Source: an uncultured virus (IMG/VR IMGVR_UViG_3300005530_000005) (Duplodnaviria > Heunggongvirae > Uroviricota > Caudoviricetes). From it: a stretch of 20,000 nucleotides of DNA. This document shows, piece after piece, positions 1-19,548 of this stretch. The stretch lies in IMG/VR virus record IMGVR_UViG_3300005530_000005. The stretch is one strand, 5' to 3'. A program made the position numbers and the translations under genes. Under the pieces are notes generated by a model. It saw only the letters and a list, made by a program, of their open reading frames with translations, had not been told where the DNA came from and made no database searches. Position 1 is the stretch's first letter. Every line of letters starts with the position of its first letter.

Positions 1-81
1 ATTGATTCCAACTACGACTATACAAATCCATTAGCATCTTTTGTTAAAGCAAAATTAGCCGAACTTGGATATACATCATGA
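1..81 (+). CDS. 3' end of a small paralogue-family protein (partial, runs off the window start)
   Basis: Frame 1 reads IDSNYDYTNPLASFVKAKLAELGYTS*, matching the L-x-x-FV-x-x-KL-x-x-x-G tail of the neighbouring ORFs. Its stop overlaps the next start (ATGA at 78-81). Confidence 0.8.
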   Translation: MDSNYDYTNPLASFVKAKLAELGYTS

Positions 82-410
82 TGCTCACTACAGGGGATAA
101 GTTTAAGTACAAAGAAGAACATATCCGTAGTTTGGAATGGCTGACCGCTGAAGAACTTGATTTAGTGCGAAATTATGTATTTGAATTTACAAATTCTGCT
201 ACAAATGAAGAACATGATTACGATGAAGATGACAATATAATTGGAACGACAGAATATACTGCATATTATTTTAATTATGATTACAGAGGGCGTAAAGTTC
301 AAATGTCCTTTATTGAGGACGATATAAAAGACGAATTGGAGCGCACCCAAGTTCTTGAAACATTTGTAGCCAGAAAGCTGGAATCTTTAGGGATTAAAAT
401 AAATGGCTAA
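78..410 (+). CDS. Small acidic paralogue-family protein
   Basis: N-terminal TGDKF and C-terminal LETFVARKLESLGIKING; overlaps both neighbours. Confidence 0.85.
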   Translation: MMLTTGDKFKYKEEHIRSLEWLTAEELDLVRNYVFEFTNSATNEEHDYDEDDNIIGTTEYTAYYFNYDYRGRKVQMSFIEDDIKDELERTQVLETFVARKLESLGIKING

Positions 411-433
411 ATACAAAGTGGGGGATCAATTTA
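390..433 (+). repeat. 44-nt imperfect direct repeat, copy 1 (copy 2 at 1543-1586)
   Basis: gggattaaaataaatggctaaatacaaagtgggggatcaattta vs gggattacaataaatggctaaatataaagtaggggataagttta; 39/44 identical by manual alignment; spans a paralogue-paralogue junction. Confidence 0.85.
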
Positions 434-666
434 AGGGAAATACTGGAGGGCCATTTGAAGGGTGGATATTTACTATAATATCAACAGAGTTAGCCCGACC
501 AGAACGAATATTATATGAGTTTACCTATGTAGATCATAATAAAAGTGGAGGAAGCACGTATTGGCAGGAGATATCTTTTGATACATACACCACGCCTATA
601 AACACTTTAAAATCCTTTGTACAGCGGAAATTAGAGGAAAAAGGAATTAAGGTGACTTTGACTTAA
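403..666 (+). CDS. Small paralogue-family protein
   Basis: Starts MAKYKVGDQF and ends LKSFVQRKLEEKGIKVTLT. Confidence 0.85.
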   Translation: MAKYKVGDQFKGNTGGPFEGWIFTIISTELARPERILYEFTYVDHNKSGGSTYWQEISFDTYTTPINTLKSFVQRKLEEKGIKVTLT

Positions 667-686
667 GCAAATAAATATGTTATATT
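658..686 (+). promoter_or_regulatory. Sigma70-type early promoter with extended -10
   Basis: TTGACT (658-663), 17-nt spacer, TATATT (681-686), with TG at 678-679; lies upstream of the kinase/tRNA-like/GluRS run. Confidence 0.75.
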
Positions 687-758
687 ATATGAACAATGAG
701 CGAAACATGTCGCTGAAATAAGTAAGCAGTTAATGGCCTAGTAATCGGGAGTAAGAAA

Positions 759-1178
759 ATGGCAAAGCTTGTAGTAATTCGTGGATTGCCCGGTAGTGGC
801 AAGTCAAAGAAGGCTCACGAGATTGCAACAGAGTACAAAGGGACAGTCGTTTCGGTTGATGATTATTTCACTGTAGACGGCGAGTATCGATTTAAGGACA
901 CGGAAATTAGCCGTGCGTATGGATATGTTGAGGGAAAAATCACTGCTCTTATGTCGGGCGGCACAGAGACAATTATCGCTGACGGCATTCATCAATCTGA
1001 AAAGCATATTCAAAGCTACCGCCGACTAGCTGAAAAGTTCGGCTATGAGTTGGAAATTCAATATCCAGATGGTGATATCTTTGATATTGAACAATGTTTC
1101 CAACATTCCATCCACAAAGTTCCCCGTCGAACAATCGCAAAAATTGCAGAACGATTTGAGCGCGATATAGCGGCTTAA
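759..1178 (+). CDS. P-loop kinase, AAA_33 / polynucleotide-kinase-like
   Basis: LVVIRGLPGSGKS Walker A, SVDDYF motif and HKVP near the C-terminus; GGGAG RBS; ends DIAA. Confidence 0.85.
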   Translation: MAKLVVIRGLPGSGKSKKAHEIATEYKGTVVSVDDYFTVDGEYRFKDTEISRAYGYVEGKITALMSGGTETIIADGIHQSEKHIQSYRRLAEKFGYELEIQYPDGDIFDIEQCFQHSIHKVPRRTIAKIAERFERDIAA

Positions 1179-1186
1179 TCGGCTAT

Positions 1187-1278
1187 GACGCCTTCGTCTA
1201 GAGGCTTAGGACAGTAGAAATTTGTGCGTTTTGCTGTAATTTCTAACAACACAGGTTCGAAACCTGTAGGCGTCGCCA
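1187..1278 (+). tRNA. tRNA-Glu-derived tRNA-like RNA with an enlarged, non-canonical anticodon arm
   Basis: Acceptor stem GACGCCT/AGGCGTC, D arm GTCT-AGAGGCTTA-GGAC, T arm ACAGG-TTCGAAA-CCTGT, 4-nt variable loop, G73 and encoded CCA. It is 92 nt long; the anticodon arm (1214-1246) is 33 nt instead of 17 and has no UUC loop. Confidence 0.88.
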
Positions 1279-1296
1279 ATTAATTGTGAGATAAAA

Positions 1297-1563
1297 ATGA
1301 ACTATTATGTGGGCCAGAAATTAAGATTTAAAAATCCTCAAGACAGATATATGTATGAAGATTTCATAACAATATTAGAACTCGGCACTCGTTTTGGTGG
1401 GAATGAAATTGTTATGGAGTGGACATATAAGGATAATAATCGAGAGAAAGTTAGAGTATGCTGGACCAGAAAAGACTTGGATGCAGAATTAATAGTTGTG
1501 GATGCACTTAAGGAATTTGTCCGTAATAAATTATCCTCTATGGGGATTACAATAAATGGCTAA
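1297..1563 (+). CDS. Small paralogue-family protein
   Basis: Starts MNYYVGQKL and ends LKEFVRNKLSSMGITING. Confidence 0.85.
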   Translation: MNYYVGQKLRFKNPQDRYMYEDFITILELGTRFGGNEIVMEWTYKDNNREKVRVCWTRKDLDAELIVVDALKEFVRNKLSSMGITING

Positions 1564-1586
1564 ATATAAAGTAGGGGATAAGTTTA
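1543..1586 (+). repeat. 44-nt imperfect direct repeat, copy 2
   Basis: 39/44 identical to 390-433. Confidence 0.85.
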
Positions 1587-1825
1587 CTCATTGTTATGAG
1601 CCTGGATTTATAGCCACAATCACTTCCATTGATGAGGGAGTCTACCATATACATTGGACAGCAATTCCCGATTATGAATTTGATGATGGAATCGAAACCG
1701 AGGACTGTGATAGTTCCCATAATTTTGAAAGCATTGAAAATAACTCGGCTACTTGGCAATTTTTAGGTAGTTCTTTAGAATTATTTGTTCGTGAGAAACT
1801 TGCAACATTAGGAATTAAAATATGA
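1556..1825 (+). CDS. Small paralogue-family protein
   Basis: Starts MAKYKVGDKF and ends LELFVREKLATLGIKI; ATGA overlap with the GluRS-like gene. Confidence 0.85.
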   Translation: MAKYKVGDKFTHCYEPGFIATITSIDEGVYHIHWTAIPDYEFDDGIETEDCDSSHNFESIENNSATWQFLGSSLELFVREKLATLGIKI

Positions 1826-2718
1826 TCCCTTATCATACTCGCATTGCGCCGTCACCTACTGGTTTTGCCCATATCGGCACAATTCGTACTGCATTATTCA
1901 ATTATCTAGCTGCCAAACAGACAGGTGGCCAATTCACCCTTCGTATCGATGACACAGACACGAATAGAAATAATGAAGAAGCCGTACAGCCAATCTATGA
2001 TGCTCTACAGTGGCTTGGCCTACAATGGGATGATACATTCCGCCAAAGTTCCCGTACCGATATTTACAAAGAAGCTGCCCATAAACTTCTGGAAGCCGGA
2101 CTTGCAGTTCGCCTAGATAATGGTGCCATTGCGCTTCTTTGGAATGATGAAATTCCACGAGCATGGCATGATAGTATTGCCGGTGAAATTAAAATCACAG
2201 ATACGAACATAGAACAAATTCACGGTCGTACAATTCTCCTTAAAGGTGATGAACATGGGAATGCACCAATCTATCAGTTTACTTCTACTTTTGACGATTG
2301 GGATACCGATATATCTTACGTTATTAGGGGTGTCGATCATATTACGAACACAGCCAAACAACTCGCTATTTGGTGGGCTCTTAATGCGTGTTATAATCTT
2401 AATAAGTTTCGGCCTGCTTTTGCCCATGTGGGGCTGATATTTAAAGACGGAAAGAAATTATCTAAACGAGAAGGTGCTGCAAGCGCTCTTTGGTTCAGAG
2501 ATCAGGGGTATCTGCCGGAAGCTATGTTTGCATTTTTGCTTCGTCTAGGATGGGCTCCAAGAAATGATGATAAGGATAGCTATACGCTCAGTATTGATCA
2601 AGCTAAGGAGCTATTCCTTACTCACGGCAAGATGCGTAGTAGTAACGCACAGATGGATATGGCAAAGCTAGATTCTGTTCAGAAGAAGTTTCTAGCTCGA
2701 ATGAAAGTGGCAGCGTAA
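1822..2718 (+). CDS. Minimal glutamyl-tRNA synthetase-like protein (class I catalytic core only)
   Basis: TRIAPSPTGFAHIGT (HIGH), LRIDDTD, QSSR, VIRGVDH, KKLSKREG (KMSKS) and LLRLGW motifs. At 298 aa it lacks the Zn-binding insertion and the anticodon-binding domains; ends KVAA. Confidence 0.93.
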   Translation: MIPYHTRIAPSPTGFAHIGTIRTALFNYLAAKQTGGQFTLRIDDTDTNRNNEEAVQPIYDALQWLGLQWDDTFRQSSRTDIYKEAAHKLLEAGLAVRLDNGAIALLWNDEIPRAWHDSIAGEIKITDTNIEQIHGRTILLKGDEHGNAPIYQFTSTFDDWDTDISYVIRGVDHITNTAKQLAIWWALNACYNLNKFRPAFAHVGLIFKDGKKLSKREGAASALWFRDQGYLPEAMFAFLLRLGWAPRNDDKDSYTLSIDQAKELFLTHGKMRSSNAQMDMAKLDSVQKKFLARMKVAA

Positions 2719-2831
2719 TGGATCAGTGGATAAAATGCCACGAATGTGGTCAACATTCTATGGGATCAGGATGGTTTTCGTGCTGGCATTGTGGGGCGTC
2801 CCTCTGTGCTATATTGAAATCGCTGTTTTAA
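2718..2831 (+). CDS. 37-aa zinc-ribbon microprotein
   Basis: Manual translation MDQWIKCHECGQHSMGSGWFSCWHCGASLCAILKSLF; two CxxC motifs; TAATG coupling to the GluRS-like stop. Confidence 0.6.
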   Translation: MDQWIKCHECGQHSMGSGWFSCWHCGASLCAILKSLF

Positions 2832-2855
2832 ACCAGTCAAATCTAGGGGATATAA

Positions 2856-3026
2856 ATGGACCTTGAAAATCTCACCAATCAGTCTGTAGCTTTCCGTTGC
2901 AAAACCAATATCACGAATTATTGGAAGGGCAAGGGATATAAGAATATCAAATGTGAAGTACACAATGTAAATGGAGTGTTTGTTGTAACCTCCAATTTGG
3001 GACCAACGGGGTTTCCTCCAGGATAA
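2856..3026 (+). CDS. 56-aa hypothetical protein
   Basis: Manual translation MDLENLTNQSVAFRCKTNITNYWKGKGYKNIKCEVHNVNGVFVVTSNLGPTGFPPG; AGGGGA RBS; fills the gap to 3030. Confidence 0.7.
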   Translation: MDLENLTNQSVAFRCKTNITNYWKGKGYKNIKCEVHNVNGVFVVTSNLGPTGFPPG

Positions 3027-3029
3027 TAA

Positions 3030-3473
3030 ATGGGTAAATTAAAGTATAAGCCAGGGGATGCAGTGCGTAGATGGAGCGAATATGGCTACATTCATAGCTA
3101 TGTCGGAAATTCATGGTATCGAGTACTCCGTATCACAAATGGTTATAGCGGAGTGGCAGTTCGTTTAACTTCTACTTCTGTTAGGGATTTACGATCAGTT
3201 GATCCTGAATGGATGCAAGATTATTTAAATAATATGATGAATAAGGAGACGCATCTTAATGCCCTTATTAGGAGAGCTACGCCGGATAACTACAAAGAAG
3301 TTGTCAGACTCATGCGTTCCTATATAAGAAGTGATCGGCGGATGCTGCGTAACGCTCTTAAATATACGAAAAAGGGAAGCGTGCCAATTCCAACATTTGA
3401 GGAATTGAGTAAATATAATATAGAAGATAATTATGGATCATACAGGTTGGAAGATTTGCGAGCGGCGGCTTAA
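3030..3473 (+). CDS. Hypothetical protein with a KYKPGD N-terminus and AAA C-terminus
   Basis: 147-aa ORF packed within the operon; ends LRAAA. Confidence 0.75.
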   Translation: MGKLKYKPGDAVRRWSEYGYIHSYVGNSWYRVLRITNGYSGVAVRLTSTSVRDLRSVDPEWMQDYLNNMMNKETHLNALIRRATPDNYKEVVRLMRSYIRSDRRMLRNALKYTKKGSVPIPTFEELSKYNIEDNYGSYRLEDLRAAA

Positions 3474-3861
3474 TAGATTTGAATTGGCAGCTAAAGCTGT
3501 AGCACTATCAGGACCAGGAATAAATAGAGGGCGAAATCGAAATGCGTTTAAGTGTGGTGCAGTCATTGTATCGCGTAAAGCGATTATTGCCGCCCGATTT
3601 AATTCTTACAAAACTCATCCGCAACTTATTAAATTTACGCCCTATCCATTCCTACACGCAGAACAAGCGGCGATCCTTGCGTGCGGAATTGGATTTCTTA
3701 GACGGCAAAAAGGATTGAAACTATACATAGCTCGCACGAAGAAGGACCACACATTAGCGTTAGCGAAACCTTGCTCAGTGTGCCAAGCTATGATCTCAGA
3801 AGCTGGAATAAAGGAGGTATATTACTCGACAAAACACGGAAATTTCCAAAGGCTAACTTGA
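3433..3861 (+). CDS. Zinc-dependent deaminase (cytidine/dCMP/TadA superfamily)
   Basis: CGAVIV, HAE, PCSVC and AGIKEVYY motifs; exact start uncertain. Confidence 0.88.
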   Translation: MDHTGWKICERRLNRFELAAKAVALSGPGINRGRNRNAFKCGAVIVSRKAIIAARFNSYKTHPQLIKFTPYPFLHAEQAAILACGIGFLRRQKGLKLYIARTKKDHTLALAKPCSVCQAMISEAGIKEVYYSTKHGNFQRLT

Positions 3862-3886
3862 CTTTGCAAAGTAAATATAATATGTT
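3858..3886 (+). promoter_or_regulatory. Sigma70-type promoter
   Basis: TTGACT (3858-3863), 17-nt spacer, TATGTT (3881-3886); spacer resembles that of the 658 promoter. Confidence 0.65.
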
Positions 3887-3962
3887 GTTAGCGTAATCAG
3901 TAACGTCTGGTTATTTTTCTTGGGTAGATATATTTCAAACAGAGAAAAGAGAGAGTTATATC

Positions 3963-4478
3963 ATGGGTATTTCAGTTTTTCAGAAGTCCACTGGCAAGGT
4001 TCCGACTGCTACTCGTCACAGCGTTCCGGTTAACGCGCTGTTCCGTTACCTGGATCGCTATGGCAAGCCGACTGGCGCTATCTTTGCGAACCTTGGTTTC
4101 GGCGATAATCTGGGCCGTTATTTCTCCGTCGCAGTTGACGGCGATAAGAAGGGTTCGCTCAGTGGCGGTAGCAATGGCTCCAAGCCTGTGCAGCTTTTGG
4201 GCACTTTCACGGTGGAGGCCAAGCTGGCTGCTGCTCGTGATCATCGTGAGGTCAGCCGTTCTTCGCTGACTCCTGGTGATGTGTTCCAGGTGCCGAACTC
4301 CAAGCAGGCCAAGCGCACTGGCAAGCCTGCTCTGTTCATGCATCTTGGTGCGGTTGCGGACGACACTAAGGTTCTTTCTTGGGACCTGAACACTCGTCGT
4401 CTGGCGATTGGCACGAAGCTGAACGGTCGTGTCAAGAAGGTTGGCGATATCGCCATTGACATGGCTATGGCTGCCTAA
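3963..4478 (+). CDS. Basic hypothetical protein with an internal two-fold repeat, likely highly expressed
   Basis: Visibly GC-richer than flanks with biased codons (ctg, cgt, aag, ggc/ggt); two similar halves; ends MAMAA. Confidence 0.85.
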   Translation: MGISVFQKSTGKVPTATRHSVPVNALFRYLDRYGKPTGAIFANLGFGDNLGRYFSVAVDGDKKGSLSGGSNGSKPVQLLGTFTVEAKLAAARDHREVSRSSLTPGDVFQVPNSKQAKRTGKPALFMHLGAVADDTKVLSWDLNTRRLAIGTKLNGRVKKVGDIAIDMAMAA

Positions 4479-4523
4479 TAAGGCCAGGGAATACAGGGGG
4501 ACATTAGAGCCCTCTTCTCTTGG

Positions 4524-4661
4524 ATGAATAAAAAATTAATAAGAACATTTCAAGATGCCGATGCTTATAGAGCTTGGCGAGACTCAAACAGAGAGATCAA
4601 ACACTTTTTCTTGATCGATGTTGTAAATAAAGTGATTTACGTATTTAAGAAGGGTAAATAA
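4524..4661 (+). CDS. 45-aa hypothetical protein
   Basis: Manual translation MNKKLIRTFQDADAYRAWRDSNREIKHFFLIDVVNKVIYVFKKGK; ends 3 nt before the next start. Confidence 0.5.
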   Translation: MNKKLIRTFQDADAYRAWRDSNREIKHFFLIDVVNKVIYVFKKGK

Positions 4662-4664
4662 ACT

Positions 4665-6530
4665 ATGGCAAAGGGTCTTACTGGATACCGCAAGCATCTG
4701 CCGTATTATTCTCCAAAAGCTACATGGAAAGATATCCAGCAGCTTCTTGAAAATTCTCGGGATCAATTTGAAGATGCATATGATAGCGTAGTTGGAACAT
4801 TTAAGGAGTTCGCACAGCACGAAATGTCGCATTCTGTGTGTCGTCTTGTGCGAATTCTTTCTACTGAATATATGAAGGCTGAGGCTCTGTTCCGATCAGT
4901 TGGCGGTGCTATTAATTTCACACACATGTACGCCCTTACTCCTAATGAACCCGGCAAGCTGCGTGTGTTTACGAATTTTGAAATCACTCCTGGGCATACA
5001 GGAGAAGCATTGACGGGCGCATGTCCCTATCATCAATATAGTGTTGTCGAGGCACTTCTCAAGCGCATCAATGAAGATATGAGTAAGCCTGCACAGCAGA
5101 AAGCATGGGTACCCATTGCTCGTGGTCGAAGCCGTCTCAAGCGCTATGAAGATATGCCCATTGAGCGCGCACTGATGCGTTATACAGACGCCAAAACGCG
5201 CCACAATATGAATGATGCTGGCATTAAGCAAGTTGCAGCAGCATTCGAGGAACTTCGTCAGCCTCTTGAATTGCACTTTGCAGAGACGCCTGAACAAGTT
5301 CTTTATATGTATTCCAGCGGCCCATCCTCGTGTATGTCTGCTGTTGGCAAGGAGCGCGCCTGGGGATCGATGACAAATCATGGTCGCCATCCCTGTGATT
5401 TCTTTGCATATCACCCCTATGTTCGCGGATGTTACACCAAGACAAAGGCAAAAGGTGCTGTTACTGCTCGTGTGTTCCTTTACACAAAGGAAAATAAGCA
5501 GGAATATTATGGCCGCATCTATGGTACAGATGGCCGTGCTGCTACTGCACTGAAGAATGCCCTTGAAGAAAAGGGTATTCGTAGTCTTCCAGATGATGGT
5601 GGCACTTCTCGCGATGGTTTCTCAGGAATGTTTGCCCGTGAATGCACATTTAAAATTCCCGGAGTACAAATGGGATCGGATTGGGTAGTTCCATTTCCGT
5701 ATATGGACAATCTTCGTGGGGGTGTTAATTTCACCTTTGATGAAAAGACGCATGAATTTACCGCTAATTGCTATGATGGTAGCGGCTACACGATTGTAGA
5801 CGGTAAGAAGATTGCTTATCGTGAGTTTCCAAGTTACACGGGTATTACTGCTGGCTACATTTCAAGCAGTCAACTAGGTACACACACTTGTCACCATTGT
5901 GGTGCCCCTATAAATCGTACGAATAAGTACCTCCAATATGCAGAACGAGACACAGGACATAAGTATTGTGGCCCAGGTTGCCTTGCTTCATTGAACAAGT
6001 GTATTGCAATTGTTGGCGATAGTACACGAGTAATTATGAATCAATCTGATGCATATTATGATGGCATTTCTGGCAATTTCTACACAACTGAAATGGCGTG
6101 TAAAGAGCGCGGCGGTGTTCCGTATGAGCCTGATCCCTGTGTTCGTTCGGAAGAGGTTACACTCACCACTGGCGGCTATGCAATTGCGGATTATAGAACA
6201 AGTGGTTCGGAGTATGCTGAAATGGCCAATCGTGTGTTTGGCATGAATAAGATTTTATTGGAGGGTAGACTTAAGGTTGAGGCCAAGAAGTATATGGAAG
6301 TTGATTGGAGTAAGCACGAGGGTATTCGTATCATTGGCGAAATTCCAGAAGATTTTCATGCAGAAATCGATAATCGCTATGGGTATCCTATTGCAGAAGA
6401 GACGTTTAGAGGACGAAAGATTTCCTATGCTGCGGATAAATCCAATCCTACTATCTCGAATAAAATTCGAGGCGCAATTCCCCTGAGTGCCTATTCCCGT
6501 CTGAATGAAGATCAAGAAGTAGCAGCTTAA
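4665..6530 (+). CDS. Large enzyme-like hypothetical protein with Cys-rich C-terminal part; candidate acyl/aminoacyl transferase
   Basis: 621 aa; motif-like segments SSCMS, ARVFLY, GRIYG, PYMD; CHHC...CGPGC zinc-finger-like segment; ends EVAA. The function is inferred only. Confidence 0.6.
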   Translation: MAKGLTGYRKHLPYYSPKATWKDIQQLLENSRDQFEDAYDSVVGTFKEFAQHEMSHSVCRLVRILSTEYMKAEALFRSVGGAINFTHMYALTPNEPGKLRVFTNFEITPGHTGEALTGACPYHQYSVVEALLKRINEDMSKPAQQKAWVPIARGRSRLKRYEDMPIERALMRYTDAKTRHNMNDAGIKQVAAAFEELRQPLELHFAETPEQVLYMYSSGPSSCMSAVGKERAWGSMTNHGRHPCDFFAYHPYVRGCYTKTKAKGAVTARVFLYTKENKQEYYGRIYGTDGRAATALKNALEEKGIRSLPDDGGTSRDGFSGMFARECTFKIPGVQMGSDWVVPFPYMDNLRGGVNFTFDEKTHEFTANCYDGSGYTIVDGKKIAYREFPSYTGITAGYISSSQLGTHTCHHCGAPINRTNKYLQYAERDTGHKYCGPGCLASLNKCIAIVGDSTRVIMNQSDAYYDGISGNFYTTEMACKERGGVPYEPDPCVRSEEVTLTTGGYAIADYRTSGSEYAEMANRVFGMNKILLEGRLKVEAKKYMEVDWSKHEGIRIIGEIPEDFHAEIDNRYGYPIAEETFRGRKISYAADKSNPTISNKIRGAIPLSAYSRLNEDQEVAA

Positions 6531-6558: not shown

Positions 6559-8346
6559 ATGGTTTATCGGATAAACGGATCAAATCGTCCTTCCTTTGAT
6601 GATATGGTTCTCCTGACTACGAAAAATCCTAAAATTGATCCGCTGCTTTTTAATCTTCTGCGTAATGCTACTCCCTATCCAGATGAGGAGCCTGTAGCCA
6701 AAATCATTCTGGAGTGGGCAAAGAAGTGTGGTGTGGATATTGATAACACTGAATTTGTATGGTTTAGCGAGAAAGAGAAGAACCTTATCATCGATTTGAG
6801 AACCGATGAAACTCATACAACCATGTTCAGTGCCCATATGGATACCTGTCAGGGCACTCCGGGAATTATTAACTTGTATTTTACAACTAAGGATTGTAAG
6901 GACCCAGGAGAGGGATTTATTTATGCAGGACGTAATCAGCGCTTATACACTATGTATGATTATGAAAATCCTGCTACAGAAATTGATTTTGCCGAGGCTC
7001 TTAAGAAAGAAAAAATCTATAATTACGAATTAGATTTCGATTTCACTAAGAAGAATAAAGATAAAATTCTATGTAAAGTCGAAGAGCGCTCTCTTAATGG
7101 CCCCAATAAAGCCACAGATTTGCGTTTTTGGGCAAAGCATACACACAATAATGCCTCACCTGCTGTATTAGGAGCCGACGATAAGATCGGCTGTTATATT
7201 ATGTGTAAGCTTATGGAAGCAGGAGTTAAGGGACTTTATGTATTCCATGTCGGGGAAGAAAGGGGCTGTAAAGGTTCTGAGTATCTTGCAAAAGAATATA
7301 AGGACTATTTCACGGGGACTAAGAATGAGGGAACTTTAGCTCCTGTGAAGCGGTGTATTGCATTTGATCGTGCAGGATACAAGGACGTTATCTCCAAGCA
7401 ACGCAGAGGAAATACAAGCTCAAAAGAATTTACAGATGAACTTGCCAAAGCATTGAATGCTCATATTCCTCAAATGTCCTGGTTTAATGGGGATGTTCAG
7501 GGAGTTTATACAGATAGTGCAGAATATATGGATATTATTCCTGAATGCACTAATCTATCTGTGGGCTATTTTAATCAGCATACAGATAAAGAACACACGG
7601 ATTATGTGTGGTTGGCAAGTATTTTCCTTCCCGCAGTTTTGAAAGTTGAATGGGATAAACTTGGCACATATAGGGACCCCCAGGCCCGCCCTACGTATCA
7701 AGCCTCGACTTACTGTGGGGGGCAATATGGTACTAACACCACCTTTCGCTCGCAAAGCCCGTTCGCGCCATCACAAGTCACGTCGGCGACGTCGCTAATG
7801 ATGTGCCCGAAATGGGACCCTATGACTGGATTGATCGAAGAAGCTTCTGTTGAGGGTATGCGACGTATTATTGAGTCGTATTTGGACATCGATGCAAAGT
7901 CAGTATTCACTAAAGTTAGCATTCTGTTTGATATGGCAAAGCGTATGGACAGTTTGCAGGAGGACCTTGTATCAATCTATTCGTTTTTGGTCAGTAAAGG
8001 CTTCAATAAAGAAGATATTGCGGAATGGGTCGAGCAAACATTTGGCGGAAATAATGATCAATTTTCTAACGATCCAAATGGTGGATTTGAGAAAGATGAG
8101 CAGACTACTGTAGAGGAAATGCTCGGAGAACAGTATTGTGAAAATTGTTATTATGTTAAATCTCAGTGTAACTGTAACTTAGCTAATGATAATAGATCGC
8201 CGCAACGAGAGGATTTTCCAGATGAAGCTACATTTCAAAGTGCTATAGTTGAATATCAAATTAGGGTTTCATCCACTGGAGCAACGCCAAAGACAGTACA
8301 AGAATTGATTTCAGATGAAGACATTCGTGCAAAGTTGGAGAAATAA
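6559..8346 (+). CDS. M28/M20-clan zinc metallopeptidase with C-terminal extension
   Basis: SAHMDT, GADDK, GEE, AFDR, YTDS and SVGYFNQH metal/catalytic motifs; GGAG RBS. Confidence 0.9.
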   Translation: MVYRINGSNRPSFDDMVLLTTKNPKIDPLLFNLLRNATPYPDEEPVAKIILEWAKKCGVDIDNTEFVWFSEKEKNLIIDLRTDETHTTMFSAHMDTCQGTPGIINLYFTTKDCKDPGEGFIYAGRNQRLYTMYDYENPATEIDFAEALKKEKIYNYELDFDFTKKNKDKILCKVEERSLNGPNKATDLRFWAKHTHNNASPAVLGADDKIGCYIMCKLMEAGVKGLYVFHVGEERGCKGSEYLAKEYKDYFTGTKNEGTLAPVKRCIAFDRAGYKDVISKQRRGNTSSKEFTDELAKALNAHIPQMSWFNGDVQGVYTDSAEYMDIIPECTNLSVGYFNQHTDKEHTDYVWLASIFLPAVLKVEWDKLGTYRDPQARPTYQASTYCGGQYGTNTTFRSQSPFAPSQVTSATSLMMCPKWDPMTGLIEEASVEGMRRIIESYLDIDAKSVFTKVSILFDMAKRMDSLQEDLVSIYSFLVSKGFNKEDIAEWVEQTFGGNNDQFSNDPNGGFEKDEQTTVEEMLGEQYCENCYYVKSQCNCNLANDNRSPQREDFPDEATFQSAIVEYQIRVSSTGATPKTVQELISDEDIRAKLEK

Positions 8347-8748: not shown

Positions 8749-9237
8749 TTGAAAGAAATTAAATTATCAAAAGGGAAAGTAGCTTTAGTTGATGATGAAG
8801 ATTATGAATACCTAAATCAATATAGATGGTATGCCGAGAAAGTTATATGCTGCAAGGTTCCTAAGTACTATGCCAGACGAGAAATTAGACTTACTGATGG
8901 GACAAAAACAAAAATTATGATGCATAATGTAATTTTAGGATTTAAAGGAGTTGATCATAAAGACGGAAATAGTTTAAATAACCAAAAAGAGAATTTACGA
9001 TCTGCAACAAACTCCCAAAATAATACTAATCGTATTGTAAAAAAGATTACACAAACAGGATTTCGTGGCTGCGAAAAGAATAAAAAAGGATTTTTAGCTA
9101 AGATATCTTTTGAGGGAAAACGACATTATTTGGGTTATTTTAAAAATTTAATTGATGCGGCTAGGGCTTACAATGAGAAGGCTTCAGAGCTACATGGTGA
9201 ATTTGCAGTTTTAAATGTCATACCAGAACAACTTTAA
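8749..9237 (+). CDS. HNH homing endonuclease with AP2 domain
   Basis: VDHKDGNSLNNQKENLR HNH motif and YLGYF...AARAYN AP2 motif; TTG start. Confidence 0.92.
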   Translation: MKEIKLSKGKVALVDDEDYEYLNQYRWYAEKVICCKVPKYYARREIRLTDGTKTKIMMHNVILGFKGVDHKDGNSLNNQKENLRSATNSQNNTNRIVKKITQTGFRGCEKNKKGFLAKISFEGKRHYLGYFKNLIDAARAYNEKASELHGEFAVLNVIPEQL

Positions 9238-11135: not shown

Positions 11136-12392
11136 TTGAGTACAGAAGCATTACAGCTTCTGAAATTATCATTAAGTCATGAGTTATATGAGCAATATAA
11201 GAGCCTATTTCTGGATGAATTTTTTCCAAGGCCAATTGATAAACTCTGGAATGTAATTAAAGAAGCTCACGAAGAATACAAACGTGATGTAACCGAGGAT
11301 GAAGTCCTAGCTCTTGTGTTTGCCAAGAATGGCACTCTTACAACAGCTATGAAAAACAACCTTGGTGAGCTATTAGAAGATGTTAAGCAGCTATCAGCAA
11401 TTGGTAATGAAGTTGCCTTAGAGGTACTAAAGGCTGCGCATAAACGGGAACTCGGTCGGGCCATAATCGAGGAAAGTTATTCCTTGATTGAGGGCAGGGA
11501 TTTTGATCAATCAAAAGTTCAGACTTATATTGATCAAATATCGGATGGATGTATTTCCAAAGACCATATTGAAGAAGTTCCCACTTCAATTGAAGCTCTG
11601 CTACAAGAAATAAATAATGGAAAAGGCTGGAGTTTCAATCTAAAATATCTCCATGAAAAGATTCCTCAAGTTCGCCCCGGTGAATTTGCAGTATTTTTTG
11701 CCCGTCCTGAAATTGGCAAAACAGCATTCTGGATTAGTTTAGCTTGTGGTGCTGGTGGATGGTGTGATCAAGGGGCAAATGTTTATGCCCTCTGTAACGA
11801 AGAATTTGCCAAGCGCAATATGGCTCGTGCTGTATCCTGCGCCTCAAGTATGACATGGGATGAAATTAAAGCTAATCCCGTGGAGGCACAGAAGCGTTGG
11901 CAAGATGTGTCCAGTAAAGTCCATATGTATGACACATTGGACTGGACACTGGATGATATTGATGCATTTTGTGCTGATCGAGAAATTGATATTTTAATTA
12001 TTGATCAGCTTGATAAGTGCAGAACAAATGGACCTAAAGATCAGGCCAATCATGAAAGGCTTGGAGATATTTATACTCGTGCGCGAGAGATTGCCAAGCG
12101 TCACAATTGTTTTGTTGTGGCTATTAGTCAGGCAAGCAATGACGCACAAGGATTAGATACTATTGATTTTAGTATGCTTGAGGGATCAAAAACACGTAAA
12201 GCTGCGGAGTGTGATTATGCTATTGGTGTTGGCCATAACAGCATCATAGAGCAGTCTGGCAGTAATAATGATGTCAATTTCCGTCTTATTACTGTATCGA
12301 AGAATAAGGGTACTGGCTGGCACGGATCAGTAGCAGCTAGAATTGATCCTCTTAGGTCTAGATATTTAGATTGTGAGCAGATGGTGAAATGA
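11136..12392 (+). CDS. Replicative helicase, DnaB/SF4 family
   Basis: ARPEIGKT Walker A, NEE, IIDQLD Walker B, ISQAS and KNK motifs; TTG start after AAGGA. Confidence 0.93.
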   Translation: MSTEALQLLKLSLSHELYEQYKSLFLDEFFPRPIDKLWNVIKEAHEEYKRDVTEDEVLALVFAKNGTLTTAMKNNLGELLEDVKQLSAIGNEVALEVLKAAHKRELGRAIIEESYSLIEGRDFDQSKVQTYIDQISDGCISKDHIEEVPTSIEALLQEINNGKGWSFNLKYLHEKIPQVRPGEFAVFFARPEIGKTAFWISLACGAGGWCDQGANVYALCNEEFAKRNMARAVSCASSMTWDEIKANPVEAQKRWQDVSSKVHMYDTLDWTLDDIDAFCADREIDILIIDQLDKCRTNGPKDQANHERLGDIYTRAREIAKRHNCFVVAISQASNDAQGLDTIDFSMLEGSKTRKAAECDYAIGVGHNSIIEQSGSNNDVNFRLITVSKNKGTGWHGSVAARIDPLRSRYLDCEQMVK

Positions 12393-12886
12393 GAAGAAAA
12401 AATCAAGATGCTTATAATGCTGCCAAACGAAAGAAATACGCGGAAGATTTAGCTTATAGAAACAAAGTAAAGCAGCAAGCCAGCGATTATCATTTTTTGC
12501 ACTATTACTCGGAAAATGGAGAATATAGAAAGAAACAATTAAATAGTCATATTAAAATTAAAAAAGAATTGCCTATAGAAAAATTACTTTTCAGAAATAT
12601 TGAAGCTTCTGCTAAGAGAAGAAATATAGAATTTAATTTATCTATTGATGATATATTTGTCCCTAAAAATTGTCCTCATTGCGGCATTGAATTGAGAAAA
12701 TATATTGGAGAGAAGAGAAGAGGGCCTGATGCCTACTCTATTGATCGTATAGATAGCTCACGAGGCTATGTAAAAGGGAATATACAAGTGGTGTGCTGGC
12801 GAGCCAATCATTTAAAGAGCGACGGGACGCTGGAAGAATTTGAAAAATTAGTTGATTGGTTGAAAAATGTACAAATTAGTTCTTGA
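12389..12886 (+). CDS. HNH-type endonuclease
   Basis: CPHCG...SIDRIDSSRGYVKGNIQVVCWRANHLK; AT-rich; lies between helicase and polymerase. Confidence 0.88.
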   Translation: MRRKNQDAYNAAKRKKYAEDLAYRNKVKQQASDYHFLHYYSENGEYRKKQLNSHIKIKKELPIEKLLFRNIEASAKRRNIEFNLSIDDIFVPKNCPHCGIELRKYIGEKRRGPDAYSIDRIDSSRGYVKGNIQVVCWRANHLKSDGTLEEFEKLVDWLKNVQISS

Positions 12887-14969
12887 TATCGAAACTAGCA
12901 CGCAATGGACCGATGACGGACGCACAGATAGTACACCATATCATCCGGATAATTTCATCGTATCTGTTGGATGGCGATTATTTAATGGTGAAGGGTTTGA
13001 AGATACTGGCTACATATTTTATGATGATCTTGCTTTTAAAGATGTAATCCAGGATTGTTTAGATAGCGCAGATTTACTCATAGGACATAACCTAAAGTTC
13101 GATCTTAATTGGTTAAAACAGTGTGGATTCATGTATGACGGCCGCATTTTCGACACTATGCTGGCCGAGTATTTGTTAGCTCGCGGACAAAAGTGGCAAC
13201 TTAGTTTAGAAGCCTGTTGTAAACGACGCGGCGTGCAGGAGAAAAAATCTGATCTTATTTCGGACTATTGGAAGAAAAAGATTGGTTTTCAGGACATGCC
13301 GCGTGACTTAGTAACGGAATACGGAATTGGAGATATTGAATCTACTTTTCAGTTATATGAAGTTCATCAGGAGTTATACAAGAGAGACAGGAATAAAGGA
13401 CTTATTCCTACACTAGAAATGTCTTGTGAATTTTTAACTATGTTATTGAAAGTGGAATCCAATGGAATTTATATTAATGGTAATGCTTTACGCGTTATTG
13501 AATTGGACTATTTGGAGGAAAAGCAAAGGCTTATTCGAGAAATTGATTCTATTTGTGTTCAATTGCTCGGTGATACCCCTTATAATCTTAATTCTCCACA
13601 ACAATTGTCCGAGATTATTTATTCTCGTCGAATAGTTAATAAAAAATTATGGTGCGATACTTTTAATCTTGGTTTAGATGAAAGAGGAAAACCTTTACGT
13701 AGACCTAGATTGTCTAGTAAGGACTTAAGGAGTGAAATACTTGCTAATACTACTCAAATATATCGTACTGTTGCACATCAATGTTCCGATTGTGGCGGTA
13801 GTGGGCGCATCCATAAACTCACAAAATCTGGACATACCTACAAGAATCTCCCTAAATGCCAAAGCTGTGGCGGTTCTGGCATTATTTATGATGATACTAA
13901 GGTCATTGCTGGACTTGGATTAGGCCCTAGAAATGTGCGCGATCTAACTTCCAACGGATTTTCCACTGATAAGGAAATGTTGGAGTATTTGGCGCGGTTG
14001 CCCAAGACTTCAGAAATTGGTAAGAAACTTTTAAATGGGCTGATACGACTAAATGCTGTGGAGACATACCTTAGTAGCTTTGTTGGAGGCATCCGTAGGG
14101 CTACACGTGCTAATAAGATTTTGCATTTTAACCTCAATCAATGTGTTACCGCTACTGGTCGTCTATCGTCATCTGATCCCAATTTCCAAAATCAGCCTCG
14201 CGGACTTACTTTTCCTGTTAAGCGGTGTGTTCGCAGCAGATTTGTTGGAGGACATATTGCTGAAATTGATTTTTCCCAGTTGGAATTTCGTATTGCAGCA
14301 GAGTTAGCACAATGCAAGGTAATGGAAAAGGAAATTAAAGATGGAGTTGATGTACACAAATTCACAGCCGCTACTCTTACTAACGCTGGACAATCCACTT
14401 CAAGACAGGAGGCTAAGCCAAAAACATTCCGTCCACTTTACGGCGGGAAAAGCGGTACGCCTGCTGAGGTCGCCTATAACCGAGCATTCATGGACAAGTA
14501 TAGCGGACTACGACGGTGGCATGACGACCTACTCACTACAGCCTGTTACACACATATCATTACCTTGCCAAGCGGACGGGAGTTTCATTTCCCGAATGCC
14601 TACAGAACGCCGTCTGGTTGGGTAGATGGTGAAACACAGATAAAGAACTTCCCGGTACAAGCTACAGCAACTGCTGATATTGTACCAATTGCTTGCATTC
14701 TATTGGATAGATATTTTGAAGAACATAAAGTACAGTCTCTCATTATCAATACAGTCCATGATAGTATCATTGTTGATATTTATCCTGGCGAGGAAAACTT
14801 AGTTCTTGATTTGATGGTTAGGGCTTGTATGAATGTCAAGAAAGAGTTTTTCCGTAGATATCAATATGAGATTACAATTCCTCTTGGAGTTGAGGTTAAG
14901 ATGGGCAAGACTTGGTTGAGTATGAAGGTTGTTCGAGAAGTTGATGAAGTTAAGGAGAAATGGGAATGA
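12867..14969 (+). CDS. Family A DNA polymerase with 3'-5' exonuclease and DnaJ-type zinc-finger insert
   Basis: Exonuclease motifs LDIET, GHNLKFD, YGIGD; TATGRLSS; motif A DFSQLEFR; motif B RQEAKPKTFRPLYG; motif C TVHDS; insert CSDCGGSG...CQSCGGSG. Confidence 0.96.
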   Translation: MYKLVLDIETSTQWTDDGRTDSTPYHPDNFIVSVGWRLFNGEGFEDTGYIFYDDLAFKDVIQDCLDSADLLIGHNLKFDLNWLKQCGFMYDGRIFDTMLAEYLLARGQKWQLSLEACCKRRGVQEKKSDLISDYWKKKIGFQDMPRDLVTEYGIGDIESTFQLYEVHQELYKRDRNKGLIPTLEMSCEFLTMLLKVESNGIYINGNALRVIELDYLEEKQRLIREIDSICVQLLGDTPYNLNSPQQLSEIIYSRRIVNKKLWCDTFNLGLDERGKPLRRPRLSSKDLRSEILANTTQIYRTVAHQCSDCGGSGRIHKLTKSGHTYKNLPKCQSCGGSGIIYDDTKVIAGLGLGPRNVRDLTSNGFSTDKEMLEYLARLPKTSEIGKKLLNGLIRLNAVETYLSSFVGGIRRATRANKILHFNLNQCVTATGRLSSSDPNFQNQPRGLTFPVKRCVRSRFVGGHIAEIDFSQLEFRIAAELAQCKVMEKEIKDGVDVHKFTAATLTNAGQSTSRQEAKPKTFRPLYGGKSGTPAEVAYNRAFMDKYSGLRRWHDDLLTTACYTHIITLPSGREFHFPNAYRTPSGWVDGETQIKNFPVQATATADIVPIACILLDRYFEEHKVQSLIINTVHDSIIVDIYPGEENLVLDLMVRACMNVKKEFFRRYQYEITIPLGVEVKMGKTWLSMKVVREVDEVKEKWE

Positions 14970-17923: not shown

Positions 17924-18694
17924 ATGAATGTGCTTATAATTCCCGATGCACATTCGTGCCCGGAACATAATAACGATAGATTTACATTAGCTGGCAAATA
18001 TATTCTTGATACTAAGCCAGACACCATCATATGCCTAGGTGACTTCGCTGATATGGGCTCGCTTAGTTCATATGATAGAGGCAAGAAATGTTTCGAAGGT
18101 CGTAGGGTAATCAATGATATTCAAGCAGCTAATGATGCTAATACAAAGCTTTGGGCTCCTGTGAATGAATATAATGCTATGCGAAAGCGCAATCGTGATA
18201 AACAGTACAAACCTAAACAGGTAATGCTACTTGGTAATCATGAGGATCGTATTTCACGAGCAGTAGAACAGGATGCGGAACTTGATGGATTGATATCCGT
18301 AGATAGTTTAGGATATGCAGATCATGGATGGGAAGTAATTCCATACGGTGTTCCGTATATTTATGAAGACATTGCATTTTGTCATAGCTTTCCTACAGGA
18401 GTTTCCGGGCAACCTATTAGTGGATCAAATGTTGCCGCTAGTTTGCTAACAAAAAATTTCATGAGTTCCATTGTTGGTCACAATCATATTAAGGATTATG
18501 ATGAAAAAGTTAGGGCTGACGGAAGGCGTATTTGTGCGCTTAGTGCAGGATGGTACGGTGATTTTGTCCCTGCTTTTGCTACTTCCAGTTCTCGTTTTTG
18601 GTGGAGCGGTCTTACTATGCTACACGATGTCAGAGAAGGTAGTTTTGAAACAGAATTTAAATCTATAAGGATGCTTCAAGAAAAATATGGCTGA
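17924..18694 (+). CDS. Calcineurin-like metallophosphoesterase
   Basis: DAH, GDFAD, GNHE and GHNH motifs. Confidence 0.92.
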   Translation: MNVLIIPDAHSCPEHNNDRFTLAGKYILDTKPDTIICLGDFADMGSLSSYDRGKKCFEGRRVINDIQAANDANTKLWAPVNEYNAMRKRNRDKQYKPKQVMLLGNHEDRISRAVEQDAELDGLISVDSLGYADHGWEVIPYGVPYIYEDIAFCHSFPTGVSGQPISGSNVAASLLTKNFMSSIVGHNHIKDYDEKVRADGRRICALSAGWYGDFVPAFATSSSRFWWSGLTMLHDVREGSFETEFKSIRMLQEKYG

Positions 18695-19394
18695 AATATT
18701 TGATTATTTTCTTTTTCAAGATAAAATGATGAGACGATTTAGTGAAGATAGAAAATTTTGGCTTTGGTTTCATCGCAAGACATTTTATGATTGGTTTGAT
18801 AAAGAATTAAATATTCCTAAATGGTTATTTGAAAAGTACGAAAGAGAATATATGGCTAATACATTAGTAGCTAATGGAGCGTTTGTATCCAATGAAGAAT
18901 GTAAGAAAATACTAGATGATACACTTATCATGTGTGAAAAATTTGATGGTGGAATTCGGCATTCTCAAAAATGCCCCAAATATTGGCCGGAAACTAACGG
19001 CTGGAACACGCAAGAATGTGAGAGGCCAGTGAGCAAAATATCACGGCCTAATACAGATACGGCAGTAAAGAATGATGAAGGTAAGTTACGATATGATTTA
19101 ATCCCACCTGAAGCCATGGAATATTGGGCGGAGGTTTATACGATTGGTGCAAAGAAGTATGCTGATCGTAATTGGGAAAAAGGAATGAGTTGGTGCCGCA
19201 TTTTCCGGGCCATGATGTCTCATTCGTGGAAATGGTTTCGTGGTGAGAAGTTTGATCTTAAAGATGGACAACATCATCTTGCCTCAGTTATGTGGTGTGC
19301 CGCTTCATTGATTGCATATGAAGCTCGTGGTATTGGGACAGATGATCGTGTAAAAGTTCCATCAGTTATTAAGGAAATTGAAATTGAAACGTAA
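18687..19394 (+). CDS. dATP/dGTP diphosphohydrolase (DUF5664) domain protein with N-terminal extension
   Basis: KNDEGKLRYDLIPP...GAKKYADRNWEKG...HHLASV...DDR signature in the C-terminal half. Confidence 0.88.
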   Translation: MAEIFDYFLFQDKMMRRFSEDRKFWLWFHRKTFYDWFDKELNIPKWLFEKYEREYMANTLVANGAFVSNEECKKILDDTLIMCEKFDGGIRHSQKCPKYWPETNGWNTQECERPVSKISRPNTDTAVKNDEGKLRYDLIPPEAMEYWAEVYTIGAKKYADRNWEKGMSWCRIFRAMMSHSWKWFRGEKFDLKDGQHHLASVMWCAASLIAYEARGIGTDDRVKVPSVIKEIEIET

Positions 19395-19548
19395 ATGCGT
19401 AATCTGTGGATTAAAGACAGAGAAGTGGCAACGTATAAATGGAGGATTTTGGCATTGCTACGATGGATGTAAGTCCACAACAGGTATAGATCATCGTCCT
19501 ATTTTGAAATATAGTACAAATACAGAAAGTTATAAAAGTGACAAATGA
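19384..19548 (+). CDS. 54-aa zinc-finger microprotein
   Basis: Manual translation from TTG: MKRKCVICGLKTEKWQRINGGFWHCYDGCKST...; AAGGA upstream; overlaps both neighbours. Confidence 0.55.
   Translation: MKRKCVICGLKTEKWQRINGGFWHCYDGCKSTTGIDHRPILKYSTNTESYKSDK

Follow-up and report, generated by a model that had tools for sequence, protein, structure and literature searches.

Glutamyl-tRNA synthetase (GluRS) is a textbook example of tRNA dependence: even amino-acid activation requires the tRNA with its anticodon. Some parts of the enzyme contact the acceptor and D arms of the tRNA and others the anticodon, and the D arm of tRNA-Glu carries identity elements. Elsewhere, the tRNA-like acceptor half of an RNA can be charged without anticodon reading or be used outside decoding, as is the case for tmRNA with alanyl-tRNA synthetase (AlaRS) and for non-proteinogenic carrier tRNAs. 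An excerpt of a 2022 review of synthetase paralogues lists YadB (GluQRS) as the sole entry under GluRS and states that GluQRS modifies queuosine in the anticodon of tRNA-Asp. Here we describe a GluRS-like gene in a 20,000-nucleotide stretch of DNA from an uncultured Caudoviricetes virus (IMG/VR record IMGVR_UViG_3300005530_000005); below, the window means this whole stretch. The gene, at positions 1822–2718 of the + strand, is a stop-free open reading frame (ORF) for a minimal GluRS of 298 amino acids. Based on sequence comparisons, we favor with moderate confidence a model in which the protein is an anticodon-blind minimal GluRS that glutamylates RNAs shaped like tRNA-Glu. In this phage, an RNA encoded at 1187–1278 would be the most likely dedicated substrate. 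A literature search returned no paper on this phage family or on anticodon-less tRNA-Glu look-alikes.

The protein comprises a Rossmann catalytic domain, a shortened CP insertion and a C-terminal part of the stem-contact type, and it matches the Pfam family PF00749 (tRNA-synt_1c; expectation value (E) 4e-58, 197 bits). Codons for RIAPSPTG (residues 7–14) and the HIGH-type sequence HIGT (residues 17–20) lie at 1840–1881 (+), those for RIDDTD (residues 41–46) at 1942–1959 (+) and those for the KMSKS-type loop, which reads KLSKR (residues 212–216), at 2455–2469 (+). The remaining motifs are AVRLDNGAI (residues 95–103), IRGVDH (residues 168–173) and AQMDMAKL (residues 276–283). A preliminary description of the gene had called the HIGH-like, KMSKS-like and glutamate-binding motifs intact, and each motif that it listed is found at these residues. 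An alignment of 30 family sequences with 48–74% identity to the window protein (alignment A1) has 48 invariant columns, which include positions in RIAPSPTG, H-x-G-T, Y151, DD158–159, R169-G-x-D-H and K-x-S-K-R. Residues R7, A9, P10, P12, T13, G14, H17, G19 and T20 are invariant in the first two motifs, as are K212, K215 and R216 in the KMSKS-type loop, where S214 is nearly so. Conservation of this extent at such divergence indicates an intact catalytic core on which selection acts.

Two parts of a conventional GluRS are missing. The first is a segment of the CP insertion, as judged from an alignment that combines 47 sequences of the family with 44 full-length GluRS proteins and 7 GluQRS proteins. 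In this alignment, 41 columns that are occupied in more than 50% of the full-length GluRS rows are empty in the family, immediately past residue 97. The junction between residues 97 and 98 is encoded at 2110–2115 (+), and alignments with structures in the PDB place it at the same point. Escherichia coli GluRS (8i9i) aligns with the window protein (E 5e-50) in two blocks, query residues 5–97 with chain residues 4–97 and query residues 146–255 with chain residues 176–278, omitting about 30 chain residues past residue 97. GluRS from Methylacidiphilum (8jpv) aligns as a single block (6–284 to 11–284) in the PDB search. The missing segment corresponds to what an excerpt of Chongdar et al. (PMC4381286) terms the putative zinc-binding domain. 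The earlier claim that the Zn/CP insertion is gone was correct for this zinc-motif segment and overstated for the insertion as a whole, of which about 50 residues (98–146) are kept.

The second missing part is the anticodon-binding region. The window protein ends opposite residue 326 of the 475-residue Stenotrophomonas GluRS 7k86. A Pfam scan of the 298 residues found PF00749 only and no match to the anticodon-binding domain PF19269, which is present in ordinary, longer GluRS relatives. These results agree with the proposal that the protein stops just past AQMDMAKL and carries no anticodon-binding domain.

Model scores and structure both place the protein closest to GltX, the conventional bacterial GluRS. 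The best curated model from NCBI is TIGR00464 (gltX), which scores 273.3 bits against a cut-off of 289.95, i.e. 17 bits short, with positions 149–320 of its 470 matched in the best stretch. The GluQRS model TIGR03838 gives 134.2 bits against a cut-off of 276.7 and covers only the N-terminal 92 residues. An AlphaFold model computed with 30 family sequences has a predicted local distance difference test score (pLDDT) of 94.1 and a predicted template modeling score (pTM) of 0.91. Its best PDB matches are full GluRS structures, with query-normalized template modeling (TM) scores of 0.80–0.86, whereas GluQRS structures reach 0.67–0.72.

The gene belongs to a large, mostly viral family of proteins of about 260–325 amino acids that consist of the catalytic core only, have the zinc-binding segment deleted and share the signature D43 and G204. 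In a large protein collection, 115 of the 120 best relatives are 285–325 amino acids long and 49–99% identical to the window protein. This conserved length and identity indicate that the double truncation is not a chance event. Four longer relatives (430–499 amino acids) carry mutually dissimilar tails without a precomputed Pfam match. Among longer proteins, no family member fused to another enzyme domain was found; only ordinary GluRS proteins with identities of 38% or less were present. An alignment-based scan of viral contigs, where a single-protein pattern scan had given none, recovered 60 related loci, of which 33 encode the short form (230–325 amino acids), 24 encode full-length GluRS and 3 have no ORF by the rule used. 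Contigs that carry the short form range from 54 kb to 608 kb. Among the matches listed in scans of other genome and metagenome contigs, most are ordinary GltX. The nearest family members are 72–75% identical to the window protein.

Two residues distinguish the family. Residue 43, within RIDDTD, is D in all 47 family rows, whereas E is found there in 98% of the 44 full-length GluRS proteins and in 7 of 7 GluQRS proteins. Residue 204 is fixed as G in the family and is P in 98% of the full-length proteins. In a maximum-likelihood tree of 98 rows (quick search), all 47 of the short sequences group in a single clade, whose support value is 100 in the Shimodaira–Hasegawa-like approximate likelihood-ratio test (SH-aLRT). 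The seven GluQRS proteins form a separate clade (99), and the mini-GluRS family lies on the GltX side of that branch. A tree of a 38-row subset gives the same groups. The family therefore lies outside the GluQRS clade, and the preliminary description was right to call it distinct. What the trees exclude is nesting inside GluQRS; a sister placement is retained, because an approximately unbiased (AU) test on the 38 rows did not reject a tree in which one branch separates the family and GluQRS jointly from the remaining rows (log-likelihood difference 14.4, p = 0.18). Model scores, structural similarity and the eight positions at which GluQRS differs from GltX (residues 6, 8, 20, 38, 45, 173, 216 and 244), where the family has the GltX residue each time, favor an origin from GltX.

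The RNA candidate at 1187–1278 (+) is predicted from its fold, from an alignment with similar RNAs (A2) and from a covariance model (R1). It sits within a 118-nucleotide gap between the same-strand ORFs 759–1178 and 1297–1563, and it lies 540 nucleotides upstream of the mini-GluRS gene on the same strand. The gap folds as a cloverleaf with a minimum free energy of -32.2 kcal/mol (z score -2.0). The RNA has a perfect 7-base-pair acceptor stem, a D arm of the tRNA-Glu type, a variable loop of 4 nucleotides, a standard T arm, a discriminator G and an encoded CCA. In alignment A2, a single base out of the 19 aligned separates its D arm from that of the bacterial tRNA-Glu cL037. Where an anticodon arm would be, there is a hairpin of 33 nucleotides, with an 8-base-pair stem (1215–1222/1238–1245) and a 15-nucleotide loop, so that the canonical 5-base-pair stem and 7-nucleotide loop with a YUC anticodon are absent. 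Neither ARAGORN at default settings nor an Rfam scan at E ≤ 1 reported a tRNA in the window. The RNA scores 67.6 bits on R1, whose training set includes this sequence.

All 16 pairs of the body are formed in the window RNA. Across 29 sequences (22 aberrant RNAs and 7 canonical phage or bacterial tRNA-Glu sequences), these pairs are formed in 98.1% of cells. Double-sided changes occur in 149 cells, compared with 42.5 in shuffled alignments. The covariation score is 0.80, compared with 0.17 in shuffles and at most 0.16 when the pairing partners are slid. These figures are inflated by the fact that most of the sequences were collected with patterns that require paired stems and the D-arm motif. 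We also considered an intron-bearing tRNA and rejected it: in intron mode, ARAGORN calls Thr, Val, Arg and His for the long-arm RNAs of the window, G003, L184 and L302, the four to which it gave a score, with the intron at a different position each time. No Rfam intron family was found in the insert of about 160 nucleotides in L184.

Three rhizosphere metatranscriptome libraries contain contigs identical to parts of this region, including 1162–1342, which spans both ends of the RNA, and 1744–1999 and 1988–2346, which fall in the mini-GluRS gene. These are assembled contigs with depths of 2.5–4; they are silent on transcript ends, strand and expression level, stretches that no contig covers are uninformative, and DNA carry-over is possible.

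Two further observations concern the immediate surroundings of the RNA. A P-loop kinase ORF at 759–1178 (+; AAA_33; PHROG annotations 'polynucleotide kinase' and 'ATPase') stops 8 nucleotides before the RNA, and its homologue in the related phage G002 is 4.7 kb upstream of the mini-GluRS gene. A role of this kinase in RNA end healing is possible. Four small paralogous ORFs (87–110 amino acids) at 78–410, 403–666, 1297–1563 and 1556–1825, all on the + strand, share the C-terminal motif L-x-x-F-V-x-x-K-L-x-x-x-G-I and have no match among Pfam or PHROG families. Two of the four fall between the RNA and the mini-GluRS gene.

RNAs with a tRNA-Glu body and an aberrant anticodon arm also occur in three related phages (G003, G004 and L184), which share the polymerase, helicase and primase of the window as well as two adjacent genes, one for a 621-residue protein and the other for a protein resembling M28 peptidases. 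The arms range from 18 to about 175 nucleotides. The single RNA in G003 has an arm of 36 nucleotides, whereas a tandem of three in G004 (L270, 9849–10220) has arms of 18, 20 and 34 nucleotides; a fourth candidate in G004 is weaker, with 19.7 bits and an insert of about 60 nucleotides. The acceptor stems of the tandem RNAs differ and every one of them pairs, and their non-canonical anticodon arms differ as well. Default ARAGORN labels these three RNAs Thr, Tyr and '???'. In the L184 RNA (3206–3441), which is 236 nucleotides long, a structured insert of about 160–175 nucleotides takes over the position of the anticodon arm. This RNA lies 480 nucleotides past the mini-GluRS gene and 72 nucleotides before the gene of the 621-residue family, and it has no Rfam family match.

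In this group of phages, the RNA, the mini-GluRS gene and the two neighbor genes are on one strand, within 5.5–8 kb in G004, L184 and the window and within 9.4 kb in G003. In three of the four phages, the RNA lies 29–753 nucleotides upstream of the gene of the 621-residue family. All four elements have thus been kept together despite rearrangements. In the window, the 621-residue protein is encoded at 4665–6530 (+), and its homologues are directly downstream of a tRNA-Glu-like RNA in three related phages. It matches no Pfam or PHROG family; in the Atlas it falls into viral hypothetical clusters only, with a poor model (pLDDT 0.50). The 595-residue M28-like peptidase homologue is encoded at 6559–8346 (+), always next after the 621-residue gene in this phage clade. 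Similar 'peptidase' genes are present in 364 phage records, with none among the 40 listed of 45 tblastn matches to the GluRS-like protein. Membership of either gene in a system with the enzyme is uncertain. Similar RNAs are found in two other branches of the enzyme family. That of L033 has a 15-nucleotide arm with a 5-nucleotide loop and lies 450 nucleotides upstream of the gene, and that of L029 has an arm with a GCAA tetraloop and lies 2.6 kb downstream of the gene.

Across the enzyme family, the recurrent neighbors are tRNA genes. A tRNA lies within 3 kb of the gene in 21 of 37 distinct family loci, with tRNA-Glu in 11 and tRNA-Gln in 4. The 84 tRNAs near family genes comprise 22 for Glu, 11 for Arg, 7 for Gln and 3 for Asp, among others. 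Loci L007, L016, L018 and L026 have arrays of tRNA-Glu only (anticodons UUC and CUC) that stop 4–511 nucleotides before the start codon. The loci with adjacent Glu arrays belong to two subclades of the tree and thus represent few independent events. Jumbo-phage loci with a full-length GluRS (L051, L053 and L061) have upstream tRNA arrays that lack tRNA-Glu. No protein neighbor is common beyond single phage lineages among 32 family loci and the window.

These observations suggest a complementarity between enzyme and RNA. The enzyme has lost its anticodon reader and retains the parts that would contact the acceptor and D arms; the RNA, which lacks an anticodon, retains precisely its acceptor, D and T arms. 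This fit, together with the linkage to tRNA-Glu genes and the precedents for both deletions, makes glutamylation at the 3′ end without anticodon reading the best supported interpretation. In our model, the mini-GluRS would activate glutamate and attach it to the CCA at the 3′ end of RNAs with the upper body of tRNA-Glu, which consists of the acceptor stem, D arm and T arm. It would make no contact with an anticodon. In the phage described here, the dedicated substrate would most likely be the anticodon-less look-alike at 1187–1278, and host tRNA-Glu is perhaps charged too. We infer the activity of the enzyme, the 3′ end of these RNAs as the acceptor and the use of a glutamyl-RNA.

Because an RNA without an anticodon cannot decode, a non-ribosomal use or a regulatory role would be implied. 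More tentatively, and with a good deal of doubt, we suggest that enzyme and RNA form a self-contained pair that is independent of the genetic code. The glutamyl-RNA would then be a private carrier of activated glutamate or a signal for a non-ribosomal process, possibly one that involves the 621-residue and M28-like proteins. The variable hairpin that replaces the anticodon arm, of which G004 has three to four versions, could serve as an address or specificity element of such a pair.

Several observations weigh against the proposal that the enzyme charges a dedicated RNA. Many family members adjoin ordinary tRNA-Glu genes, as is the case at 11 of the 37 loci. The four phages with the block of RNA and enzyme belong to one lineage and count as about one evolutionary event, and the pairing figure for the RNAs is inflated, as noted above. 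The substitutions E43D and P204G occur at positions that are otherwise nearly invariant in GluRS. Furthermore, G002, a complete relative with direct terminal repeats, has the enzyme together with the 621-residue and M28-like genes, and its sole tRNA is tRNA-Tyr. It has no R1 match genome-wide (default filters, E ≤ 0.01) or near the gene (filters off; best match 7.1 bits, E 1.3). Thus, the enzyme does not need a phage-encoded partner.

The RNAs, in turn, do not need the enzyme. A pattern that combines the tRNA-Glu D arm with a long anticodon arm matches 29 viral contigs in a scan that excluded the nearest record of the window and that misses G004 and L184. A regular expression recovers the cloverleaf in 22, and in one of these, L282, the RNA is a normal tRNA-Glu whose variable region is long. 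A GluRS-like gene is absent from 28 of the 29 records, being present in G003 only, and 1 of the 13 records that are at least 90% complete has such a gene. The class of long-arm RNAs is clearly wider than the enzyme family. The preliminary description had supposed that the enzyme is tailored to the neighboring RNA. The presence of an anticodon-less RNA with a tRNA-Glu body at 1187–1278, and of similar RNAs in three related phages, keeps this plausible as far as sequence comparison can tell. A strict pairing is disfavored by G002, the ordinary tRNA-Glu neighbors and the 28 records without the enzyme.

Viral contigs in the set L275–L302 add to the picture of this RNA class, with at least 20 more RNAs that have a tRNA-Glu body and expanded, non-canonical anticodon arms of 24–52 nucleotides. 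Most are located within large arrays of phage tRNA genes in which ordinary tRNA-Glu is present as well, and the records of several are classified as proviral.

The strongest alternative is that the protein is an auxiliary GluRS for ordinary translation only, which tops up Glu-tRNA-Glu from host or phage tRNA during infection. We regard this as possible but doubtful. Such an enzyme could bypass a host block on GltX, or compensate for a host enzyme that serves phage isoacceptors such as tRNA-Glu(CUC) poorly. The RNA at 1187–1278 would then have no connection to the enzyme; it could be a relic, a signal for RNase P/Z processing within the early transcript, or an RNA that serves a different purpose. 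Most of the RNA linkage in the family, which is to canonical tRNA-Glu genes at 11 of 37 loci, fits this explanation, as do the enzyme without a special RNA in G002 and the 28 viral records whose long-arm look-alikes, mostly in large ordinary tRNA arrays, lack a GluRS-like gene. The location of the RNA in a 118-nucleotide same-strand gap, and the RNA-library contig (1162–1342) that crosses both of its ends, are in line with this explanation as well. However, the RNA has retained a perfect 7-base-pair acceptor stem, an encoded CCA and the D arm of tRNA-Glu. In addition, the three to four tandem RNAs in G004, with acceptor stems that differ and are all paired, are hard to square with relics. Linkage of the RNA, the enzyme and two neighbor genes in four phages despite rearrangements likewise argues against an unrelated RNA.

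A second alternative, suggested by analogy, is a ligase that adenylates glutamate and passes it to a small molecule, a protein, or a nucleotide or DNA base instead of the 3′ end of an RNA. MshC and PoxA/EpmA are synthetase paralogues with other acceptors of this kind. Both of the parts that position a tRNA are lost from the phage protein, the family-specific changes adjoin the active site, and the gene lies in a module for nucleotide metabolism and replication that includes a dCMP deaminase, a P-loop kinase, a MazZ-like protein and an HD phosphohydrolase. Nevertheless, the sole recurrent neighbors in the family are tRNA genes, chiefly those for tRNA-Glu, and the C-terminal part of the stem-contact type is retained and conserved. 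Moreover, no fusion to another enzyme domain was found among the longer proteins. We therefore consider a ligase of this type improbable.

An RNA modifier of the GluQRS kind seems more improbable still. It would place glutamate either on a modified tRNA base, in the way that YadB acts on queuosine 34 in tRNA-Asp, or within the long arm of the neighboring RNA, again on a base. The architecture is shared in that neither protein extends beyond the catalytic core, the AU test did not reject GluQRS as sister group (p = 0.18), and the aberrant arms, as the variable part of the partner RNAs, could carry a target base. Against this stand the separate clade, the scores of 134 bits for a GluQRS cut-off of 277 and 273 bits for a GltX cut-off of 290, and the GltX residue at all eight diagnostic positions. 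The phage protein also lacks the zinc motif that the consulted part of PMC4381286 reports for 46 of 61 GluQRS proteins, and the tRNAs near the gene show no enrichment of tRNA-Asp (3 of 84). Finally, a non-catalytic binder, acting as a sponge for RNAs shaped like tRNA-Glu or as a decoy that draws off a host factor directed at GltX, is very improbable, for although the KMSKS serine, which HipA targets in the GltX of E. coli, is retained, the invariance of the amino-acid-site and ATP-site residues at 48–74% identity argues for catalysis.

As a widespread and conserved natural GluRS that has neither the anticodon-binding domain nor the zinc domain that positions the acceptor, the enzyme is a test of the minimal protein needed to choose tRNA-Glu. 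If it charges the anticodon-less look-alike, the two would be a natural orthogonal pair of enzyme and RNA, which would be of interest for genetic-code engineering. This would also point to a use of glutamyl-RNA in phage infection that has yet to be described, e.g. as an amino-acid carrier, a regulator or a counter-defense. If the enzyme only tops up Glu-tRNA-Glu, remodeled synthetases would occur also in phages of about 66 kb and not in huge ones alone.

Some other arrangements of RNAs and synthetase genes were seen. In two related loci, L185 and L188, an odd tRNA-like RNA that ARAGORN missed lies within 2–3 nucleotides past the mini-GluRS gene; the features noted in these loci are at 252–413 and 1293–1373 in L185 and at 187–258 and 1135–1215 in L188. 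In L185, a tRNA-Gln pair (anticodons UUG and CUG) stops 27 nucleotides before the mini-GluRS gene, and some subfamilies may serve RNAs of the tRNA-Gln type. Two large viral contigs (L025 and L027) have, 1.26 kb upstream of the gene for the mini-GluRS, a suppressor-type tRNA (4640–4715) with anticodon UUA and, on visual inspection, a D arm of a non-Glu type. Four viral or proviral contigs (L037, L038, L040 and L046) carry a full-length gltX followed by tRNA-Ala and tRNA-Glu. Because these genes group with GltX of Burkholderiales and Rubrivivax in the tree, they are probably host DNA at provirus edges.

The window covers the early and replication part of the phage genome, with genes for a primase, a DnaB-like helicase, a family A DNA polymerase, a Cas4-type exonuclease and a RusA-like resolvase. 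Genes of nucleotide metabolism encode a dCMP deaminase, a P-loop kinase, a MazZ-like pyrophosphohydrolase and an HD phosphohydrolase. For the polymerase, identity is 44% with the enzyme of Pelagibacter phage HTVC033P and 40% with the enzyme of Puniceispirillum phage HMO-2011; these phages are absent among the 40 listed of 45 tblastn matches of the GluRS-like protein. In a rhizosphere metagenome DNA run, the window lies inside a contig of 66,106 bases. Megablast of the whole window against phage records gave no match, and the nearest record, G001, is a fragment of 17 kb. Promoter-like and terminator-like sites in positions 1–5000 are no more common than in shuffled sequences.

The gap of 310 nucleotides after the GluRS gene contains small ORFs at 2719–2832 and 2856–3026 (+), the first of which encodes a 37-residue peptide that by eye resembles a CxxC...CxxC zinc ribbon. 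No structured RNA is evident in this gap (z score -0.6). The region 3687–4522 is the best-covered part of positions 1–6000 in all three RNA-library runs, with contigs of 763–811 nucleotides and depths of 7–13. It contains an ORF at 3963–4478 (+) for 171 amino acids without a known family, and the local G+C content is higher (0.48). A MazZ-like dATP/dGTP pyrophosphohydrolase domain (18687–19394) adjoins an HD/YfbR-like phosphohydrolase (19538–19999; +). This pair raised the idea of a Z-genome, which we rejected: G001–G004 have no homologue of PurZ or adenylosuccinate synthetase and thus give no sign of a 2-aminoadenine genome. Two HNH-type endonuclease genes (8749–9237 and 12389–12886; +) are wedged into the replication module, and the family A DNA polymerase (12867–14969) has a DnaJ-type CxxCxGxG zinc-finger insert at residues 303–342.

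Among known systems, GltX (TIGR00464; structures 8i9i, Thermosynechococcus 2cfo and 7k86) has the same catalytic fold and motifs as the window protein and gives its best matches in both sequence (E 5e-50 to 1e-45) and structure (query-normalized TM scores of 0.82–0.85). The phage family differs from GltX in that it lacks about 150 C-terminal residues and 41 columns of the zinc domain, has E43D and P204G fixed and is borne by viruses. Each of the two deletions has a precedent of its own. In the available part of PMC4381286, deletion of the putative zinc-binding domain is reported in 7 of 212 bacterial full-length GluRS proteins. Such proteins, including the Methylacidiphilum enzyme 8jpv, lack the same segment as the window protein, which shows that this deletion is compatible with a working GluRS. 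However, they are housekeeping enzymes of cells in which the anticodon-binding domain is still present. The second precedent is an engineered, C-truncated E. coli GluRS of Dubois et al. from 2009 (Biochemistry 48:6012), which, going by the title of that work, is reportedly specific for tRNA-Glu. It is cut near the same boundary but was made in the laboratory and still has the zinc-binding domain, whereas the phage family is natural and conserved and adds a second deletion.

GluQRS/YadB (TIGR03838; structures 1nzj and 4a91) is likewise a natural GluRS paralogue of about 300 amino acids with the catalytic core only. Relative to the window protein, however, it belongs to a separate clade and is a much weaker match both in sequence (1nzj, E 1e-14, N-terminal third only) and in structure (TM scores of 0.67–0.72). 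An excerpt of PMC4381286 that includes its Table 2 gives the zinc motif CxCx11-28Yx3C in the CP insertion of 46 of 61 GluQRS proteins, and the segment with this motif is deleted in the window protein. The phage family is linked to tRNA-Glu, and not to the tRNA-Asp of GluQRS, which accounts for 3 of the 84 nearby tRNAs. In comparison with tmRNA and AlaRS, no tag-coding part or known transferase is linked to the RNA described here, the identity is that of Glu and not Ala or Gly, and it is the synthetase itself that has been remodeled in a phage.

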